Below are positions 16,131 to 24,959 of a stretch of DNA of 32,000 nucleotides, piece after piece. The stretch covers positions 360,001 through 392,000 of the forward strand of contig JAUWGH010000004.1 in the NCBI GenBank assembly GCA_030606485.1, in the 5' to 3' direction. This DNA comes from Promethearchaeota archaeon (GTDB taxonomy: Archaea > Asgardarchaeota > Lokiarchaeia > Sigyniarchaeales > SOKP01). The translations under genes were made by a program, and so were the position numbers. How positions within the stretch are numbered: the stretch's first letter is position 1; the number at the start of each line of letters is the position of its first letter. The notes under the pieces were generated by a model that made no database searches, was not told where the DNA came from, and saw nothing but the letters and a program-made list of their open reading frames with translations.

Positions 16131-18536
16131 TTATTTTTTTCGATGCGTTTTGAATTTTTCATATAATGCTTTATCCAAAAATTTTCCGATTTTTTTTGAT
16201 ATACTACTAGCAATTCCCCAACGTTCTCCTTCAATCATTACTTTAAAATCTTCAGAAGTTGGCTCACGATTCAGTCTTGTTTGTAAAATTGGAGTTGCAA
16301 TTTTAATTACTATTTCTTTTATGTCTTCATACGCCGGAATTCGGATAGGATCCCAGCGTTCTTTTATTTTCTGTAATGCAAAATAATAATATTGAGAGAA
16401 TAATTCAATAGGATCTCCTTTTAATTCACTATGAAGTTTTAAATTTTCAGCTGCTGTTTTAGTATCTTTTTCATTCCAATATAATTGATTAGGATTTATT
16501 CCTGGACTGGTAATTCTCATTAATGATGAGGTTATTTTTCTCTCTATCCAATTTAACGTGCTAATTTCTTGTTTCTCTCTTATTTCTTTTTTCTTCTCTT
16601 CTTCTTTTTGTTTCTTTTGTTCATAGATTTCTTCAACTCTGAGTTTTCTAAGCTGTTCATATGTTTTTAGTCTTTGAATTAAATCATATGCAATTACATA
16701 AGAAACTGGAGAAATATATTCTTCTTTTAATGTTAATGAAACAAAATCCTCAAAAATTGGACTAACTTCAGTTTTTAATTCATTAATACCTTCTTTTAAT
16801 GATTTATCTGTAAGTCTTGCCAAAATGAAACCATTTACTAAGAAAGGATTGTTCTGTGCGTTAAACATCTTACTTAGCTCTTTTTGTCTTCTTAACATTC
16901 TCTCAATCATTAGCTCTTCAATTTTAACACTAACCCATCCTTCAGTACTTGTTGTACCGAATATTCTTTCTAATCCTTTTAAAAATAATGATTTATCATC
17001 GCTGATTTTAATATAAGCTTCAAGAATTCGACCCAGGTGTCGAATAATTTGTGAAAAAATATTAAAATATATTTCTCTTGCGAGATTTGTTATTATTTCT
17101 TTGTATTCTAATATTTTTAATAATTGAGAATAATTTTGAAGATTATATTTTTTTATAATTCGATTATTAATAATTTGGTGCTTAAGATTATATGTTTTTA
17201 ATTCTTTTGGTGAGGTTCCAATATCATTACAAATTCTTTCAATTATTTTTTGATTTTTATCATCTGAGAATAATTCCTTTAAATCCATATATTTTAATCC
17301 ATTTTCATTTTCCAAGGCAGTTAGTTCTTGAGGATGAGTCTCTTTTAAATGATTATAAGAAAGTTTTGCAAGAATTATTGGATTCTTTTGAGGGTCTCGC
17401 AATTTATTAATATCTGATTTATCAATATTAAAATTCTTCATTGTTTCTATAACATTTTCTACAACTTCAATTGAAATTTTATTAAGATGGTTAAGGTTAA
17501 AAACACCAAACTTATTTAGAACAAAAATGGTATCGGAAAAAGAATAATTCATTAAACTTTGAAAGTAATAGACAAAATCATTAACATTTTTACTATTTAT
17601 TTGAGCAAGATCATTAAATATGAATCCAATTATTTCTTTCTCAAAATCTTCATAATTTTTTTCTTGTTGAAGACCTTCTTCAATTTTATTTACAAGTTCT
17701 TGTTTAGTTTGATTTGCATTTAAAAATAAATTTAAAGCACGTTTTGAAATAGGAAAAGTATCAAAATTAAATTCTAAAGCTTTTCTTAAAATCATTCTAA
17801 TAGACATTGTTTGCATTTGGAGATCTTTAAATGACTTGAATTCAAATTTATTTTTTAACGTTTCTTCTAAGCGTGAAATTAAGGATAATTCAATATATTT
17901 ATCTTCTTTTTCTTTTAAGGCTAGTTCCTTCTCAATCTCAATAGAAATGCTTTTTAATTCTGATCCTTCTTCAATAATATCGCCTTTAATTTGATGGGTA
18001 AACCCTAAAAGATCTCCAATAAAATCATAGAAATGATATTCAGGATAATTTTGTATTAGTAGGACAAGAAAATCTTCCATTTCTTGTTTAATTTTCTGTT
18101 CTTCTTGTTCTTTTTGAAACCCAGCCAACTTATCATAATTTAGTAAATAGCTTATTATGTTCTTTCTCAGATTTAACTTCTTATTATTTAGTTTTACCTC
18201 ATAATCAAATGAATCTTTTGCAAATGATTTTATTTCTTTAAATAAAGTATCTTTTTCCATTTTTTCAATTTTATATGTAGATTCCACAGAGATTTGAGCT
18301 AAATTAGATGAATCTTGTATTCTTATACCTAAATTATGATATGCATGGATTGCAGCAGCCGCTATAAGCACATTATGAAGTTTATTTTTAGTCCCAATTA
18401 ATTCGAAAATTTTCTGTTTATCTGCCTCACGTTTCAAGTGTGAAATTAGTAAATATATAGTTTGAAAATATTTTTGAGTGCTCTCAGCTGCTGTAGTTTT
18501 TCTTTTTATTCCAGAAATGCTCAATATGACATCCAC
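16131..18536 (-). CDS. Hypothetical alpha-helical protein (801 aa)
   Basis: Long intact ORF whose start overlaps the stop of the upstream 771-aa gene; no motif recognised. Confidence 0.8.
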   Translation of the reverse strand: MDVILSISGIKRKTTAAESTQKYFQTIYLLISHLKREADKQKIFELIGTKNKLHNVLIAAAAIHAYHNLGIRIQDSSNLAQISVESTYKIEKMEKDTLFKEIKSFAKDSFDYEVKLNNKKLNLRKNIISYLLNYDKLAGFQKEQEEQKIKQEMEDFLVLLIQNYPEYHFYDFIGDLLGFTHQIKGDIIEEGSELKSISIEIEKELALKEKEDKYIELSLISRLEETLKNKFEFKSFKDLQMQTMSIRMILRKALEFNFDTFPISKRALNLFLNANQTKQELVNKIEEGLQQEKNYEDFEKEIIGFIFNDLAQINSKNVNDFVYYFQSLMNYSFSDTIFVLNKFGVFNLNHLNKISIEVVENVIETMKNFNIDKSDINKLRDPQKNPIILAKLSYNHLKETHPQELTALENENGLKYMDLKELFSDDKNQKIIERICNDIGTSPKELKTYNLKHQIINNRIIKKYNLQNYSQLLKILEYKEIITNLAREIYFNIFSQIIRHLGRILEAYIKISDDKSLFLKGLERIFGTTSTEGWVSVKIEELMIERMLRRQKELSKMFNAQNNPFLVNGFILARLTDKSLKEGINELKTEVSPIFEDFVSLTLKEEYISPVSYVIAYDLIQRLKTYEQLRKLRVEEIYEQKKQKEEEKKKEIREKQEISTLNWIERKITSSLMRITSPGINPNQLYWNEKDTKTAAENLKLHSELKGDPIELFSQYYYFALQKIKERWDPIRIPAYEDIKEIVIKIATPILQTRLNREPTSEDFKVMIEGERWGIASSISKKIGKFLDKALYEKFKTHRKK

Positions 18537-20836
18537 TCTTTATATATATCATTCCAATTATTTTTTAAACGAATTTTAAGATTATTATGCCAATATTGAA
18601 AATCAAAGACATGATATAATTCCTCTTTAACCCGGTCTTTTTCATTCTCATCTAAAATATGCTTTAGAGTTATAGTCATAGGTCGTGCGATTAATTTCGA
18701 GAAATATTTTAATTCTGTTCTTTCTAAAAATTCAAATAATGATTCTTGAGAATCATCTGGAAAAATAAATTTAATGGGAATTTGAGGGTTTGGTTCAAAT
18801 TTAATTTTTTTTAGATCCTCAATTATAATGTTTTCTATATATTTAGGAAAATTTTGTTTAATTTCTAATGAAGCTTGATAATGTTTAGAGAAATTCAAGA
18901 GAATACTTTTTTCTTCTTGATTAATAATGGTTTCAATGTATCTATTCAAAATTACGCTAAAATTTTTTGGGTCTTGATCTTGTTTTTCAATTTTTTCCAA
19001 GAAATCAATAAATTCATTAACAATTTCATAAATTTGCCAATCTTTCTTTTCTATTATGTTCAAGTATTGTTTAACATATAATTTTATCCAATTTAGACAA
19101 TGCTCGCTCCATTTTAAATCAATCCCTCCCACTCTTTTTTGTAAGAATCTATGAAAAAAATTTCCAAATGTAACTGGATCTTGAATTTCATCTATAGATA
19201 TTCCTCTAAGGAATCGGTTTATTGTAGAATATCGTAAAATAAGATTTAATAGAAATTTTATTTCTTGAGGAAAAACTTTAAGCTTATCTAAATGTATTCG
19301 AATTCGGCTTGGGTCTTCATCCATCATTATCTCTGAAAAAGAAATAAGATCGGATATATTGAAATCTAGTTTTTCAAAAAATTCCATTATACTGGAATTA
19401 ATTATTTCTTTAATTTCTTCAATTGGTTGTGTCTCATCATATTTTTTTATTCTTTCAATAATCAATCTTTTTTCTATTAAATTACTAATGTAATCATCCA
19501 ATTTATCAATAAATTTATTTCCGAGGATATTTGAGAGTTTTGGCTTATTTTCCATCAAGATTCTGAGACTTTGTATATAGTTCTTTAAATAGAATTTTAA
19601 TTGATATCCAAAAAAGTATTTTGGAAGCGCGATAATGAATATTTTTAAGGTTTTTTTAAATAATTCATTCAAATAGTTTAATGTTGATTCGAGCTCAGCA
19701 GCGTGAATATAATTATATTCTTTTAACAATTGTTTCAGAGTAAATTCAACTATATAATTATATTCTTTGTAATTCTCTTCGGTTATTTCTATTTTGTGAG
19801 AAATATATTTGACTAATTTTTCAATAATTTCCTCTAAATTGCCAGTTTCGCCCGTTTTAATGAATTTAGAAACGAAATCGAAATATTTACTAAAAGATAA
19901 AGAACAATTCATTAATATTGTATTTATCTTATCAATTAACCATTGATCATTTTTAGGCTCTTTTATTGGTTGAATTTTTTGAGCAATAATTTCAATTAAG
20001 TAAGTAACAATCTTTTCTTGAATTTCGTCAATTGTACCAGTATTTGCAATTTTCAATAAATTTGCCCCCAATTTCAATGTATTTAATGTAATGAAATATG
20101 CGCTTGGTGATGAGATAAAATACTTGGTATGTTCATTGATAACAGTTTCTTTAAAATTTAAAGGAATTTTTACAAATATGGGGTTCTCAACTCGTATTTC
20201 AGGGGGGGATTCTCCATATAAAAATACATTATCACCCTTAATTGTGCTATATACATTCATTGATTCATCTTCAGTAGGTGTCGAAGATTTTATTCCAACT
20301 AATTTTTTATTCCATTTACCCTCCAATAAATCTCCTTGTAGTTTAAACGTGAAATGAGTGGCAAATTTCGCTAGAACCGCTTCTTTATGAAATTTATTTA
20401 AATCAGGACGTCTGGTAAATTCCTCAACTTCAAAAAATAATTTACTGATTTTATTTAGAGATTCTCGGGAATTATGAATTTCTAAAACTTTTTTTTCAGG
20501 TTTTAATGCAAGTAGAAGAGACTCACAATCCTTAAAAGAACCAGGAATAAAAATCATAGAATTTGGATACAATTTAGTTTTTGCATCTTTCTCATCAATA
20601 TTAAATAATTCAAATTCAATGAAATAAATTTCTGAGCCAGCATAATCTTTCAACATTGCATTATATTGAGTTTGAAATATCAATAATTCACTAACTAAGT
20701 TTTTTATTTTTTCTTGTGTTAATTTTCCTGGTCCAATAACTTCTCCAACTTTTATATCTCGATCTGGAGAGGAATATCCAAAGATTATGGTATAAATATT
20801 CTCAATATATTCACGTGTAGTAATCAAATAAATCAA
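18521..20836 (-). CDS. Hypothetical protein (771 aa)
   Basis: Long intact ORF; no motif recognised; exact start uncertain. Confidence 0.8.
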   Translation of the reverse strand: MIYLITTREYIENIYTIIFGYSSPDRDIKVGEVIGPGKLTQEKIKNLVSELLIFQTQYNAMLKDYAGSEIYFIEFELFNIDEKDAKTKLYPNSMIFIPGSFKDCESLLLALKPEKKVLEIHNSRESLNKISKLFFEVEEFTRRPDLNKFHKEAVLAKFATHFTFKLQGDLLEGKWNKKLVGIKSSTPTEDESMNVYSTIKGDNVFLYGESPPEIRVENPIFVKIPLNFKETVINEHTKYFISSPSAYFITLNTLKLGANLLKIANTGTIDEIQEKIVTYLIEIIAQKIQPIKEPKNDQWLIDKINTILMNCSLSFSKYFDFVSKFIKTGETGNLEEIIEKLVKYISHKIEITEENYKEYNYIVEFTLKQLLKEYNYIHAAELESTLNYLNELFKKTLKIFIIALPKYFFGYQLKFYLKNYIQSLRILMENKPKLSNILGNKFIDKLDDYISNLIEKRLIIERIKKYDETQPIEEIKEIINSSIMEFFEKLDFNISDLISFSEIMMDEDPSRIRIHLDKLKVFPQEIKFLLNLILRYSTINRFLRGISIDEIQDPVTFGNFFHRFLQKRVGGIDLKWSEHCLNWIKLYVKQYLNIIEKKDWQIYEIVNEFIDFLEKIEKQDQDPKNFSVILNRYIETIINQEEKSILLNFSKHYQASLEIKQNFPKYIENIIIEDLKKIKFEPNPQIPIKFIFPDDSQESLFEFLERTELKYFSKLIARPMTITLKHILDENEKDRVKEELYHVFDFQYWHNNLKIRLKNNWNDIYKEWMSY

Positions 20837-21046: not shown

Positions 21047-21451
21047 ACGCAATTTGGTTCTGACCTAGGATTAGACCAGCGAGTTATTGATGAAATTGCC
21101 CCTCAAATAACTTTTATCACATCAAATTGTGAAATTGAGGCACTAGCGCTTGTAAGCCAAGAAGGATATGTCATAGCTTTCAGTTGTCTCCCACAATATA
21201 AAATGGATGGAGATAGATTTGGAGGTCTAAGTTCGGCAATTCTAATGACAGCTAGAAGCGCAATGAACTCACTTTTTGGAGAAAATATTAATGAAATAAT
21301 TGTAAGAGGAGAAACAGGTTATTTTATTGTATCAAATGCTGGTCGTTTCGTTTTAGTTGGAGCAGGAACTATTATTCAAACAATGATGAAAACAGTGAAG
21401 GTATTTAGAATCGCCGCAAATAAAATCAGAGAAATTCTAAGCAGAGTCTAA
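21047..21451 (+). CDS. Roadblock/LC7 domain protein (134 aa if started at ACG 21047)
   Basis: The frame is open from 21047. IEALALVSQEGYVIA upstream of the ORF-track start, plus ...GGLSSAIL...INEIIVRGETGYFIV..AG..VLV..., make a complete Roadblock/LC7 pattern. SD-like GGAAGTGA lies at 21033-21040. Confidence 0.8.
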   Translation, partial: TQFGSDLGLDQRVIDEIAPQITFITSNCEIEALALVSQEGYVIAFSCLPQYKMDGDRFGGLSSAILMTARSAMNSLFGENINEIIVRGETGYFIVSNAGRFVLVGAGTIIQTMMKTVKVFRIAANKIREILSRV

Positions 21452-21547
21452 TATTCTAATTTTGGTTTTAAAAAAAAAAGATTTTTATATTTTAAAGAAT
21501 ATCACATTTTAATATAAGGAAATTAAAAAAAAATTAGTTAAAAAAGC

Positions 21548-21625
21548 TTGAAAATTAAGGAAGTTAATTGTAATCTTTTTAATTGCTCATGGCGTTGGCA
21601 GTGGGCTTGGCGTTGGTGTCGATAA
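21548..21625 (+). CDS. Putative Trp-rich leader peptide (TTG-KIKEVNCNLFNCSWRWQWAWRWCR*) upstream of trpB2
   Basis: Five TGG codons among the last 11 sense codons; same strand as trpB2 and about 185 nt upstream of it. TTG starts are common in this window; TATA-like TTTTAATATA at 21507-21516. Confidence 0.7.
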   Translation: MKIKEVNCNLFNCSWRWQWAWRWCR

Positions 21626-21769
21626 GCCTATTGGCATTGATCTTTCCTTAGTATAATCTTGCAACTTTATTAACTATTACTTAAATAGTTTAAAATAACT
21701 ATTTCGCATCCTAAAACTGCATTATTCTTATTAAGATCTAATAAGAGATGAATCACATCTTAGATGTGA
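21599..21769 (+). promoter_or_regulatory. Structured trpB2 5' region: hairpin over the Trp codons, alternative pairings and two palindromes
   Basis: CAGTGGGCTT (21599-21608) pairs with AAGCCTATTG (21624-21633). AACTATT 21672-78, AAATAGTT 21683-90 and AACTATTT 21697-704 give mutually exclusive pairings. Inverted repeats TCTTATTA-N5-TAATAAGA (21726-46) and TCACATCT-T-AGATGTGA (21753-69). Confidence 0.5.
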
Positions 21770-21811
21770 ATAAATTGTAATATTAAAAAAAATATTGAAG
21801 GAGAATTGAAT

Positions 21812-23209
21812 ATGGATTTATTTAATAGCAGAATATTATTGCCAACTAGTGAAATACCAAAAGAATGGATAAATATACTTCCAGATTTACCAACTCCAAT
21901 GACACCATTAGTCAATCCTGCCGATGGTAAACCGGCACCTCCCGAATTAGCAATGAGGATTTTCGCAAAAGAATGTGTTTTACAAGAGGTATCACAAGAA
22001 AACTCAATTCCAATCCCAAATGATTTAAGAGCAATGTATGCATCTATAGGAAGACCTACACCACTTCATAGAGCATACAGATTGGAAAAAGAACTTGGAA
22101 TAGAAGGAGATAATATAAAGATTTTTTATAAAAATGAATCAGTAAGCCCAACTGGTAGCCACAAATTGAATACTGCACTTGCACAAGCATATTTTTGCAA
22201 GAAACAAGGTATTAATGAGATGGTAACGGAAACAGGTGCAGGCCAATGGGGTAGTGCTTTAGCTTTAGCGTGTAATTTATCTGGGATAAAATGTACAGTG
22301 TATATGGTTCGAATAAGTTTTTTACAAAAACCAGGAAGAAAAATTTTAATGAAAATTTTCAATGCCAAAGTACATGCTAGTCCATCAGAATTCACAGAAT
22401 CTGGAAGGAGATATTGGGAAAAAGATAATAATCATAATGGAAGTTTAGGACTTGCAATATCTGAAGCGATAGAACATTGTTTAAGGGATGAATCTATTAG
22501 ATATTCTTTAGGAAGTGTTGTAAATCACGTGCTTTTACATCAAACAGTAATCGGTCAGGAGGCAAAATCCCAGCTTTCTAAAATAGGAGAATATCCTGAC
22601 ATTGTGATTGGTTGTGCTGGAGGTGGATCAAATTTTGCTGGAACCGCCATTCCTTTTATAAGAGAAAAGATAAGGGGTGTATACCCCGAAACGGAAATGA
22701 TCGCTGTTGAGCCTAGAGCATGTCCAAGTATGTGTAAAGGAAAGTATATGTGGGATTATGGAGATACGGCAAAGATGGCACCTATTGTGAAAATGTATAC
22801 TTTAGGTCATAACTTTATTCCCTCTCCAATTCATGCGGGAGGATTAAGATATCATGGAATGGCACCAATCCTCTCTATTTTATTGAAGAATAAAGTCATA
22901 AAAACAGTTATGCACCATCAAACAGATGTTATTCAAGCGGGACTTTTATTTGCAAAAACAGAATATATATTACCTGCACCAGAAACATGTCATGCGATAA
23001 AGGAAGCAATAGATCAGGCATTAAAAGCTAAGGAAAATAAAGAAAAAAAAACAATTCTATTTAATTTTAGTGGTCATGGATTTTTTGATTTGTTAGCTTA
23101 TAAGGAATATATGGATGGTGCCTTAAAAGATTATGAGATGCCAACGGAAGAAATAGAAAAGGCGTTATCTGCAGAGGATATGCCAAAAATAAACGAAGCC
23201 TTTTTTTAA
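21812..23209 (+). CDS. trpB2: Tryptophan synthase beta chain type 2 (TrpB2, stand-alone)
   Basis: GRPTPLHRA..LE, PLP-lysine motif SPTGSHKLNTA, TETGAGQWG, GCAGGGSNFAG, HAGGLRYHG, LFNFSGHG. SD AAGGAG at 21798-21803 favours ATG 21812. Confidence 0.95.
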   Translation: MDLFNSRILLPTSEIPKEWINILPDLPTPMTPLVNPADGKPAPPELAMRIFAKECVLQEVSQENSIPIPNDLRAMYASIGRPTPLHRAYRLEKELGIEGDNIKIFYKNESVSPTGSHKLNTALAQAYFCKKQGINEMVTETGAGQWGSALALACNLSGIKCTVYMVRISFLQKPGRKILMKIFNAKVHASPSEFTESGRRYWEKDNNHNGSLGLAISEAIEHCLRDESIRYSLGSVVNHVLLHQTVIGQEAKSQLSKIGEYPDIVIGCAGGGSNFAGTAIPFIREKIRGVYPETEMIAVEPRACPSMCKGKYMWDYGDTAKMAPIVKMYTLGHNFIPSPIHAGGLRYHGMAPILSILLKNKVIKTVMHHQTDVIQAGLLFAKTEYILPAPETCHAIKEAIDQALKAKENKEKKTILFNFSGHGFFDLLAYKEYMDGALKDYEMPTEEIEKALSAEDMPKINEAFF

Positions 23210-23284: not shown

Positions 23285-24376
23285 TTGTGCATTTTTTTGA
23301 TAGTTACGTACGTAATATATTTATTTTTACTATTCTTGACATGTGGTACGTTATTTAAACTTTCATTTCTTTCATATAAGTATAATGAGATGAGTGCTTT
23401 TATTAATAATATTATTACTACTTCAACATTATTATTCGCAATTATTGCAAGTATGTTAAGACCTATTATTAACCCAAATGTTAATCCAATTTTAATATAT
23501 CCATTTGATTTCTTTGCTATTTTATTTATATTCCCCTTTTTTCTTGTGTTCCATTTATTAATATATAGAGAAAGAAAAAGAATGAAAAAAGGCGCGAATA
23601 ATTTAACTGAATTACGTGTTGATGCTGAAGGATTGAGAGTATTACCTCTTAAATATGAGATGTACAGAAAATTAGCTCATTTAATAGTTATTTGCATTTG
23701 TTTTTTCTATTTCATATTTGGAGTATTTGCAAAATTCCTTTTAGATAATTTTATTTCCATTCTTCCCGATTTTATTAAAAATTTTTTTTCTGGGGAAAAT
23801 TTAATATTTTTAAATAATGCAGATTTTACTCAATATTTAGTTGTTTTTTTAACCAGTATTTCATTAATGGGACTTTTAACAGCAGACTATGTGAGAATAA
23901 TTGCTCCTGAAGATTATCCTTTGAAATCAATTAATCGACTTTTACGACAAAGAGAATTAAAAACTAGAATAGGACCTCATATTACAATGGCAGTGGGAAC
24001 TATTTCAATAATCCTAATTTTTGGACCTCTATCAAACACTGGTCCGTTAATAGTTAGTCTTTCAATATTTATATCTTCCGTAGGTGACAGTTCAGCAAAT
24101 TTAATAGGAATTACATTAGGACGTCATAAAATAAGAGGAGGGAAAAAGAGTTATGAAGGATTAATTGGTGGGATATTATTTTCTTTTTTATCTGGAATTT
24201 TATTTTTATTTTTAATTTTTCAATTCTTTCCGAACCTTATAAGCCCTCAGAAAATACTTTTTATCTCATTAACAGTTGCTTTAATAATTGGGATAATAGA
24301 TTATCTTGATTTGCCAATAGATGATAATCTTAGTTTCCTAATAATATCTTCAATTATTATATATTTATTATTGTAA
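23285..24376 (+). CDS. Polytopic CTP-dependent kinase of the dolichol/phytol kinase-DGK1 (cytidylyltransferase-like) family
   Basis: Multiple TM segments; E..RK..H, GDSSANLIG..LGRHK, KKSYEG and IDDN motifs. Confidence 0.8.
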   Translation: MCIFLIVTYVIYLFLLFLTCGTLFKLSFLSYKYNEMSAFINNIITTSTLLFAIIASMLRPIINPNVNPILIYPFDFFAILFIFPFFLVFHLLIYRERKRMKKGANNLTELRVDAEGLRVLPLKYEMYRKLAHLIVICICFFYFIFGVFAKFLLDNFISILPDFIKNFFSGENLIFLNNADFTQYLVVFLTSISLMGLLTADYVRIIAPEDYPLKSINRLLRQRELKTRIGPHITMAVGTISIILIFGPLSNTGPLIVSLSIFISSVGDSSANLIGITLGRHKIRGGKKSYEGLIGGILFSFLSGILFLFLIFQFFPNLISPQKILFISLTVALIIGIIDYLDLPIDDNLSFLIISSIIIYLLL

Positions 24377-24452: not shown

Positions 24453-24959
24453 ATGGGAGAATCAAATAAATTAAAAATACCAAAAATTAAAAAAGGGACA
24501 GTAATTGATCATATAGACGCAGGATATGCATTATCTATCATGGATATTATTGGATTAGGAGAAACACAGAATCTAATGACAATTGGTGTTAATATTGAAT
24601 CAAAAAAATATGGAAAAAAAGATATTATTAAAGTTGAAAATGTATTTCTAACAGAAACTCAAATTCAACAAATTTCAATAATCACGCCAAATGTATCAAT
24701 ATCGTTAATAGAAGATTTTAATGTAATTGAAAAATTAAGATTAAAGTTACCGAAAATGATTAAAAAATTAATAAAATGCCCTAATAGTACTTGCATTTCT
24801 AATTCTGAAAAAGAACCAATAGGTTCTGAATTTAATGTATTAAATGAAAAACCTTTAAAAATTCAATGTATTTATTGTGATCGAATTTTAAATTTAGATG
24901 AATTAGTTTTTATTGAAAAAAAGCGAGAAAAGAGAATAAAACAGAGAATACAATTATAA
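24453..24959 (+). CDS. pyrI: Aspartate carbamoyltransferase regulatory chain
   Basis: IKKGTVIDHI, KKDIIKVE, Zn ligands CPNSTCIS...CIYCD. Confidence 0.95.
   Translation: MGESNKLKIPKIKKGTVIDHIDAGYALSIMDIIGLGETQNLMTIGVNIESKKYGKKDIIKVENVFLTETQIQQISIITPNVSISLIEDFNVIEKLRLKLPKMIKKLIKCPNSTCISNSEKEPIGSEFNVLNEKPLKIQCIYCDRILNLDELVFIEKKREKRIKQRIQL

Follow-up and report, generated by a model that had tools for sequence, protein, structure and literature searches.

Leader-peptide attenuation is a textbook mechanism of gene regulation in bacteria. To our knowledge, the control of trp genes that has been characterised in archaea works through a protein repressor; one such repressor is TrpY of Methanothermobacter thermautotrophicus, which acts on TGTACA promoter boxes and responds to Trp. 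A short open reading frame (ORF) packed with Trp codons upstream of a trpB2 gene in the genome of an Asgard archaeon raises the question of whether a translating ribosome may also sense Trp in archaea. The locus lies in a window of 32,000 nt (C2:360001-392000 of a 13-contig, 29% GC assembly of 3.75 Mb with a completeness score of 100%), and all positions given below without a contig or locus name are those of this window. The original prediction, which was made from the letters of the window, guessed an Asgard host and described a TTG-started ORF of 25 codons with a Trp-rich end, located in a GC-rich island of an AT-rich spacer on the same strand as trpB2 and about 185 nt upstream of it, with its Trp codons in the 5' arm of a 10-bp hairpin that closes over the stop codon. 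In this paper, we have re-examined this locus, compared it with the corresponding regions of related genomes, and weighed the possible explanations of the element.

Results

The leader ORF and its setting in the source genome

Read from the TTG, the frame is translated as LKIKEVNCNLFNCSWRWQWAWRWCR-stop and ends in W-R-W-Q-W-A-W-R-W-C-R-stop, with TGG codons at 21590, 21596, 21602, 21608 and 21614 and a TAA at 21623-21625 (Table 1). The five TGG codons fall within 11 codons, are repeated with a 6-nt period, and are co-oriented with trpB2, the ATG of which (21812) stands 186 nt 3' of the leader stop. The GC content is 0.52 at 21580-21639, compared with 0.13-0.20 in both flanks. The original prediction was right about the frame and its five TGG codons, the island, the strand and the distance, as well as about the gene and the host: the trpB2 product matches NF009057 with 656.5 bits (cut-off 366), and the close relatives of the source genome are labelled as Promethearchaeota/Promethearchaeia metagenome-assembled genomes.

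Trp accounts for 1.04% of the codons of the source genome. When all six frames of the 3.75-Mb assembly were searched for W-x-W-x-W, the leader proved to be the only short frame between genes that has five alternating Trp codons. The repeated W-x-W matches inspected elsewhere in the genome come from coding repeats for GDGNG and RGG read in the wrong frame and were discarded, and there is no second copy of the GC island in this genome. The leader element of trpB2 is not a product of chance. It contains the minor codons CGT (11% of the Arg codons of the genome) and CAG (17% of the Gln codons), which is expected if the intervening codons supply a hairpin stem.

Table 1. Features of the trpB2 upstream region in the source genome (window positions)
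Feature	Position	Strand	Description
BRE/TATA-like promoter element	21476-21489	+	AAAAGA + TTTTTATA; putative, read from sequence only
Leader ORF	21548-21625	+	25 codons, TTG start to TAA stop, five Trp codons
Hairpin 1	21599-21633	+	5' arm CAGTGGGCTT at 21599-21608; 3' arm AAGCCTATTG at 21624-21633
Weak U/C-rich tract	21641-21649	+	TCTTTCCTT, at the site of the T5-T7 tract of the relatives
Hairpin 2	21719-21752	+	Conserved flanks GCATTA...GATGA; -6.8 kcal/mol
Hairpin 3	21754-21768	+	CACATCT-T-AGATGTG; -7.2 kcal/mol, z -3.25
Shine-Dalgarno-like GGAG	21800-21803	+	8 nt 5' of the trpB2 ATG; putative, read from the letters
trpB2	21812-23209	+	Stand-alone TrpB-like PLP enzyme; putative regulated gene

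The start of the leader transcript is predicted near 21511-21513, about 25 nt after the BRE/TATA-like element. The spacer between the leader and trpB2 contains AT-rich TATA-like words, which might provide a second promoter downstream of the leader. In the relatives, GGT or GGAG occurs before trpB2 at the same spacing as the GGAG of the source genome.

No TrpA, TrpE or IGPS (trpC) was found above cut-off in the source genome, in spite of its completeness score of 100%, and trpB2 is its single TrpB-type gene. Because trpA, trpE and trpC are absent, trpB2 stands alone, and it is the only Trp-forming enzyme found in this genome; judging by known TrpB2 enzymes, its role is probably indole salvage. 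The genome also encodes an orthologue of FttA (892 bits, cut-off 580). Source DNA occurs in cold-seep and marine-sediment metagenomes, and one 'metatranscriptomic WGS' run and three RNA runs yielded a 290-nt contig from a related strain, which lies inside trpB2 and is uninformative on the leader.

Hairpins of the leader and the spacer

Hairpin 1, in which the RNA segment CAGUGGGCUU is paired with AAGCCUAUUG, folds at -20.3 kcal/mol (z = -2.93), and 1 of 200 dinucleotide shuffles is as good. Since the reverse strand of the same region reaches only -6.6 kcal/mol (z = -0.38), the hairpin belongs to the trpB2 strand. The predicted 10-bp stem over the stop is confirmed. Its 5' arm holds the Gln codon, the third Trp codon, the Ala codon and the first base of the fourth Trp codon, and no further part of the Trp codons; the fourth and the fifth Trp codons lie in the loop, and the 3' arm begins inside the stop codon.

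Nowhere in the 186-nt spacer (21626-21811) is there a run of at least five T, a feature that 77% of random 186-nt intergenic windows of the source genome contain. Two further hairpins lie in the spacer, neither of which covers the Shine-Dalgarno sequence. The core of hairpin 2 reads CTTATTA-AGATC-TAATAAG in place of the AATATTG-AATTC-CAATATT of the family; a loop of 5 nt, as in the family, is closed by another 7-bp stem, which is fully compensated. Hairpin 3 also occurs in the relatives, with varied stems.

Conservation of the leader in the family of the source genome

The 600-700 nt upstream of trpB2 orthologues were taken from related genomes, and 46 loci of the source genome's family (coded f1) were aligned (alignment A1); start codons, stop codons and frames were counted on a frame-blind alignment. 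The leader of this family has the form M-(A/S)-T-x5-7-W-x-W-Q-W-P-W-R-(W)-x-stop and is located 139-186 nt before trpB2. One common start column is seen in 43 of the 46 loci (ATG in 40, GTG in 3), its distance to the invariant TGG being 24, 27 or 30 nt, which puts every one of the 43 in frame with it. Between start and stop, the Trp frame is uninterrupted in all 43 loci, as against 19 and 21 for the other two frames. The stop follows 6-9 codons after the anchor TGG in 45 of the 46 loci, and all three stop codons are used (TAA 25, TAG 17 and TGA 4). The N-terminal codons vary among the 46 loci, and the TGG codons are invariant. As far as an alignment can tell, these counts are the signs to be expected of a translated frame whose Trp codons alone are important. 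The in-frame TGG cluster that the original prediction called for in orthologous upstream regions is thus kept in the 46 aligned family loci and before the trp operons of four genera (see below), with variable intervening codons, a common start column and a stop inside the hairpin. This outcome supports the possible ribosome-mediated Trp attenuation that the original prediction put forward.

The other elements of the region recur as well. Most family members have a BRE/TATA-like element (a purine-rich hexamer followed by a TATA octamer) 42-55 nt before the leader start codon, and many of their leaders have a GGT at Shine-Dalgarno spacing. Hairpin 1 is two-tiered in the family, with the stop in the loop or the 3' arm of the inner stem. 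The inner stems vary in sequence and register (GGCGUU/AACGCC, GUUGGC/GCCAAC, GGUCUU/AAGACC and GGCAUU/AAUGCC, with GGGCUU/AAGCC in the source genome), and in the outer stem CAGUG or CCUUG of the Trp region pairs with a conserved CAnnGG motif 3' of the stop, the pairs being CAGUG:CAUUG and CCUUG:CAnnGG. No member of the family has a stronger hairpin 1 than the source genome. The core of the leader, TTGGCAGTGGCCTTGGCGTT, is nearly invariant at the nucleotide level, including the third positions of CAG and CCT, which an untranslated RNA would also explain; the pairing demand of the outer stem accounts for the choice of CAG for Gln and CCU for Pro. In 39 of 48 relatives a T5-T7 run follows, at a median of 34 nt 3' of the stop, and further downstream come hairpin 2, hairpin 3, an A-rich stretch and the Shine-Dalgarno sequence, in this order.

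RNAalifold on a MAFFT alignment returned only three trivial pairs, since the stems sit in differing registers; per-sequence folds and a hand-named structure were therefore used instead. In the hairpin 1 alignment of 48 relatives, 84% of the cells are paired, compared with 31-49% when the partners are slid, and the covariation is modest (7 double-change cells, a score matched by 17 of 500 shuffles). For hairpin 2, 87% of the cells are paired, compared with 31-63% after sliding; seven pairs show compensatory changes, and none of 500 shuffles reaches the covariation score. A helix of the start region with the CAGTGGCC codons is paired in 79% of the cells, with no covariation. A long-range pairing of the motif after hairpin 1 (CATTGGA; GATCTT here) with the loop and 3' arm of hairpin 2 was also considered; it looks compensatory in the source genus and was dropped, as it fails in other subgroups, for instance those with CATCGG and TTCCATT, and has no covariation support.

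Divergence in the source genus

The source genus is represented by seven near-identical sequences, in which the start column of the family reads GTA and lies 26 nt from the anchor; the ancestral start has thus been lost and is out of frame. The TTG of the original prediction is indeed the sole canonical in-frame start of the leader in the source genome, but it is not the start used by the family, whose ancestral ATG this genus has lost, and translation of the leader in the genus would depend on an otherwise unsupported TTG. Strain L119 has in addition lost the fifth Trp codon. A metagenome scan added only three near-identical sequences of the genus, and all of them are too close to one another for selection to be measured. 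In all seven sequences of the genus the GC island, the stronger hairpin and an intact in-frame stop are retained, together with four or five TGG codons; that such an island persists with these codons in a 29% GC genome argues against free decay.

Association with Trp-synthesis genes

A covariance model (R1) was built from A1 and run on 151 Asgard genomes and five chosen genomes. Among the 151 genomes its matches are confined to family f1, where it was found in 21 of 25 genomes besides the source genome. There is one match per trpB2 copy and none elsewhere, except in genus g4, where a match lies about 3 kb upstream of trpB1. This genus has no leader at trpB2, and carries it before the trp operon instead: at locus L107, a leader with the sequence MHAYKFKLGWQWPWRFE-stop is followed by a T7 tract, by hairpins 2 and 3 as at trpB2, by an ORF of 80 aa and by a trp operon in the order trpD, trpC, trpF, trpB, trpA, trpE and trpG. 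In the five chosen genomes R1 located a leader before the trp operon in three more genera, g7 (leaders MATENNCFWSWQWPWRWQ and MTISFANHFGWQWPWRWQ), g10, where it occurs in addition to the trpB2 copy, and g9, where the match is weak. The leader element is exclusively associated with Trp-synthesis genes.

The genera that have no leader at trpB2 (g4, g6 and g7) all possess a trpB1-type gene, and most genomes with a leader at trpB2 have none, a comparison that covers few lineages. In genus g6, the 3' half of hairpin 1 is still present at locus L006, which shows that a deletion removed the ORF. Both downstream hairpins, 2 and 3, are still found in this genus, so that part of the control would not need the leader.

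A few further observations were made at these loci. The 80-aa ORF between the leader region and trpD (L107:749-991, genome G019) is unannotated, and an ORF also opens between the leader and the trp operon at locus L135 (genome G010). Genome G151 has two trpB2 copies on opposite strands, 15 kb apart (C50:67342-68727 and 83550-84941), each with a leader of its own, MATEKNTFWRWQWPWRF and MATGNYYFWQWPWSWL, respectively.

Trp-codon leaders in other Asgard archaea

Sister families of the same order have shorter leaders, which end in W-P-W-H, M-A-W-H-x-L or W-A-W-R-P, with the stop in or beside a hairpin. Family f2, to which the cultured Promethearchaeum syntrophicum belongs, shows a stem of 13-15 bp and a U4-U5 run 6-8 nt after it, which together have the look of an intrinsic terminator; in one f4 genome a U-run lies about 12 nt after the hairpin, and in f3 U-rich sequence follows it directly. 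Outside this order, the frame ...F-W-A-W-R-W-L-x-W-P-stop precedes trpB2 by about 75 nt in four Odinarchaeia genomes; a GUGGC/GCCAC hairpin spans its stop, and the motif CUGCAAUGG and a T6-7 tract are also present. The length differences among these Odinarchaeia copies are multiples of three, and no canonical in-frame start was seen in them. One f8 genome has W-P-W-R-G-P-W-Q-stop, followed by a long T-rich tract. At least three alternating Trp codons were found in none of 14 trpB2 upstream regions from ten other Asgard families, a search that leaders with a single Trp or a single W-x-W would escape.

Two observations from these genomes may be added. A conserved 14-bp inverted repeat, CTTTCAGTAAGGGT...ACCCTTACTTGAAAG, which encloses about 50 nt, lies about 100-190 nt upstream of the trpB2 leader in Odinarchaeia (loci L049, L109, L110 and L111), just before the TATA box of the leader; it resembles a small structured RNA and has no match in Rfam. 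In family f19 (L056 and L057), a small gene that looks winged-helix-like by eye only stands directly before trpB2, which has no Trp leader there; the gene is possibly co-transcribed with trpB2 and suggests protein-based control in this lineage.

Discussion

A proposed mechanism

The explanation that we find best, and hold to be reasonably likely, is that the 5' leader of trpB2 contains a translated Trp-codon leader, on which the ribosome would report the supply of charged tRNA-Trp. That the element of the family as a whole is a translated Trp sensor acting in cis seems quite probable to us; for the copy of the source genome, we put the chance that it still works in this manner at slightly better than even. 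From the frame, the hairpin and the conservation before Trp genes, which are directly observed, we infer the following steps. Transcription would start about 25 nt after the BRE/TATA-like element, and a ribosome would begin the leader at the conserved ATG in the relatives and, presumably, at the TTG (21548) in the source genome. When Trp is scarce, the ribosome would slow down on the UGG codons, which overlap or immediately precede the 5' arm of hairpin 1, and would keep this hairpin open, so that the transcript could continue and trpB2 be expressed. When Trp is plentiful, the ribosome would reach the stop and leave, hairpin 1 could form, and expression would fall. In the relatives, this fall would most likely be due to early termination of the transcript at the oligo-U tract behind hairpin 1, either intrinsic or aided by FttA/aCPSF1. 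Because the source genus has neither the ATG nor the oligo-U tract, the effect there may be less strong or take a different form, for example through mRNA stability or an action of FttA on the U/C-rich tract. The two known routes of archaeal termination are oligo-dT tracts and FttA (PMC13681488). As a general account of the output, premature termination is a tentative choice, to which we give somewhat less than an even chance.

Alternative explanations

The same sensor might act through a different output, whereby the stalled ribosome would shield the mRNA from 5'-to-3' decay, or would remodel hairpins 2 and 3 and thus improve the translation of trpB2, as in ermC-type control. A spacer that lacks oligo-T in the source genome, when most random windows of its size have such a run, does fit a leader meant to be read through, and hairpins 2 and 3 are conserved structures between the leader and the Shine-Dalgarno sequence. 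However, the frequent T5-T7 run soon after hairpin 1 (39 of 48 relatives), the terminator-like hairpin with its U-run in f2, the Shine-Dalgarno sequence left free by hairpins 2 and 3, and the failure of the alternative pairing between leader and hairpin 2 to hold across genera make this output unlikely in our judgement.

Another reading is that the element is an untranslated structured RNA and its open frame a by-product, the UGG repeats being bound by a protein, as in TRAP control, or by tRNA-Trp in the manner of a T-box, with UGG base-paired to the tRNA at its CCA anticodon or at its 3' end. The almost invariant nucleotides of the core, the 6-nt repeat period and the fact that neither Odinarchaeia nor the source genus has a convincing start codon could be read in this way. 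But all 43 starts keep the frame while their distances take three values, the stop is likewise in frame throughout and comes as three codon types, while the other frames are often closed, and the stems CAGUG:CAUUG and CCUUG:CAnnGG account for the nucleotide conservation; moreover, we found no TRAP homologue and no T-box or other Rfam match. We regard an untranslated RNA as very improbable. To a relic, that is, a decayed leader in the source genome whose trpB2 would be constitutive or would be driven from its own promoter under a protein regulator, we likewise assign only a slim chance. This genus has indeed lost the ATG, the frame relative to the ATG and the T-tract, the core of its hairpin 2 has been replaced, and L119 lacks the fifth Trp codon; yet hairpin 2 was swapped for a fully compensated stem rather than eroded, and the 52% GC island, the four or five TGG codons, the in-frame stop and the stronger hairpin stand in all seven sequences of the genus, which are too close for a test of selection.

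Comparison with known regulatory systems

Among known systems, the translated Asgard leader that we favour most resembles trpL of Escherichia coli (RF00513) and its relatives in Proteobacteria and Actinobacteria: both have a small ORF with many Trp codons immediately before genes of Trp synthesis and in the same orientation, with the regulatory codons in the 5' part of a hairpin and the stop close by, and in both only the Trp codons of the peptide are conserved. The differences are considerable, however. The Asgard element is archaeal, with a putative BRE/TATA promoter and proposed oligo-U or FttA termination, and would require neither Rho nor a bacterial-type terminator; its codons alternate as W-x-W-x-W whereas those of trpL are in tandem; no clear 1:2/2:3/3:4 switch was found in it, and it has two further conserved hairpins downstream; and its main target is a stand-alone trpB2. 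Neither RF00513 nor any other Rfam family, T-box included, matches the region of the window (to E = 10) or six relatives (to E = 1). With no match to RF00513, homology to trpL is unsupported, and the two leaders appear to be analogous.

Other systems share single features with the element. In ermC-type leaders a stalled ribosome melts a hairpin that overlaps the end of the leader; the stall is caused by an antibiotic, and the hairpin hides the downstream ribosome-binding site. A ribosome stall that opens a hairpin overlapping the leader end is likewise proposed here, but the cue would be a lack of charged tRNA, and the Shine-Dalgarno sequence is about 170 nt away. In Bacillus subtilis, TRAP recognises a trp leader RNA with 11 GAG/UAG triplets at a period of 5-6 nt. 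The Asgard leader is similar in having triplet repeats of a similar period in a trp leader, and differs in that the triplets are UGG, number three to six (five here) and lie inside a conserved reading frame; furthermore, no TrpBP/TRAP homologue (PF02081) was matched in the source genome. With TrpY the element would share the regulation of archaeal trp genes by Trp, although TrpY is a protein repressor at promoter boxes, and TGTACA is absent from 21452-21811. The spacing of a TnaC-type arrest peptide (W-x3-D-x7-P-stop, at Trp-catabolic genes) is not found in the leader, and the targets of the leader are biosynthetic. Mycobacterial polycysteine leaderless uORF attenuators are reported to be short unannotated ORFs packed with cognate codons that control downstream biosynthetic genes (bioRxiv 10.1101/834739); these bacterial leaders respond to Cys and not to Trp, and have no relation in sequence or structure to the Asgard leader. 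A genome-wide scan of the source genome for leaders rich in His, Cys, Met and other residues was too noisy, as the genome is AT-rich.

Implications

No description of archaeal Trp leader peptides was found in the full-text literature, the coverage of which was limited. The leaders at trpB2 and the trp operons in Promethearchaeia and Odinarchaeia provide a concrete, testable case of ribosomal amino-acid sensing in archaea, and a natural probe of how archaeal termination through oligo-U and FttA interacts with translation. They would also single out the stand-alone trpB2 as a route of supply under Trp control in organisms without the remainder of the pathway, while the diverged copy of the source genome is a natural variant that could reveal which parts are dispensable. 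A bolder reading, which we hold to be less likely than not, is that Asgard archaea have true ribosome-coupled attenuation, in which the position of the leading ribosome on the Trp uORF would decide whether RNA polymerase (with Spt4/5 and FttA) stops at the oligo-U. If it were true, transcription-translation coupling would have a direct regulatory use in the prokaryotic lineage closest to eukaryotes, and the variant of the source genome, with its non-ATG start and no U-tract, would then indicate a second output of the same sensor, this one post-transcriptional and more like the uORF control of eukaryotes.

Neighbouring genes in the window

Several other features of the window deserve mention. 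Upstream, at 16131-20836 (-), lie two large neighbouring ORFs, one of 801 aa and one of 771 aa, neither of which has a Pfam match. A Roadblock/LC7 gene (21086-21451, +) adjoins the leader on its upstream side; its full domain has no canonical start, the frame opening at ATT, and a start at its first ATG (21203) would remove the N-terminal third. Downstream of trpB2, a 363-aa ORF (23285-24376, +) with no Pfam or NCBIfam match, which is not a recognisable pyrB, precedes pyrI at 24453-24959 (+), the gene of the regulatory chain of aspartate carbamoyltransferase (PF01948 and PF02748).
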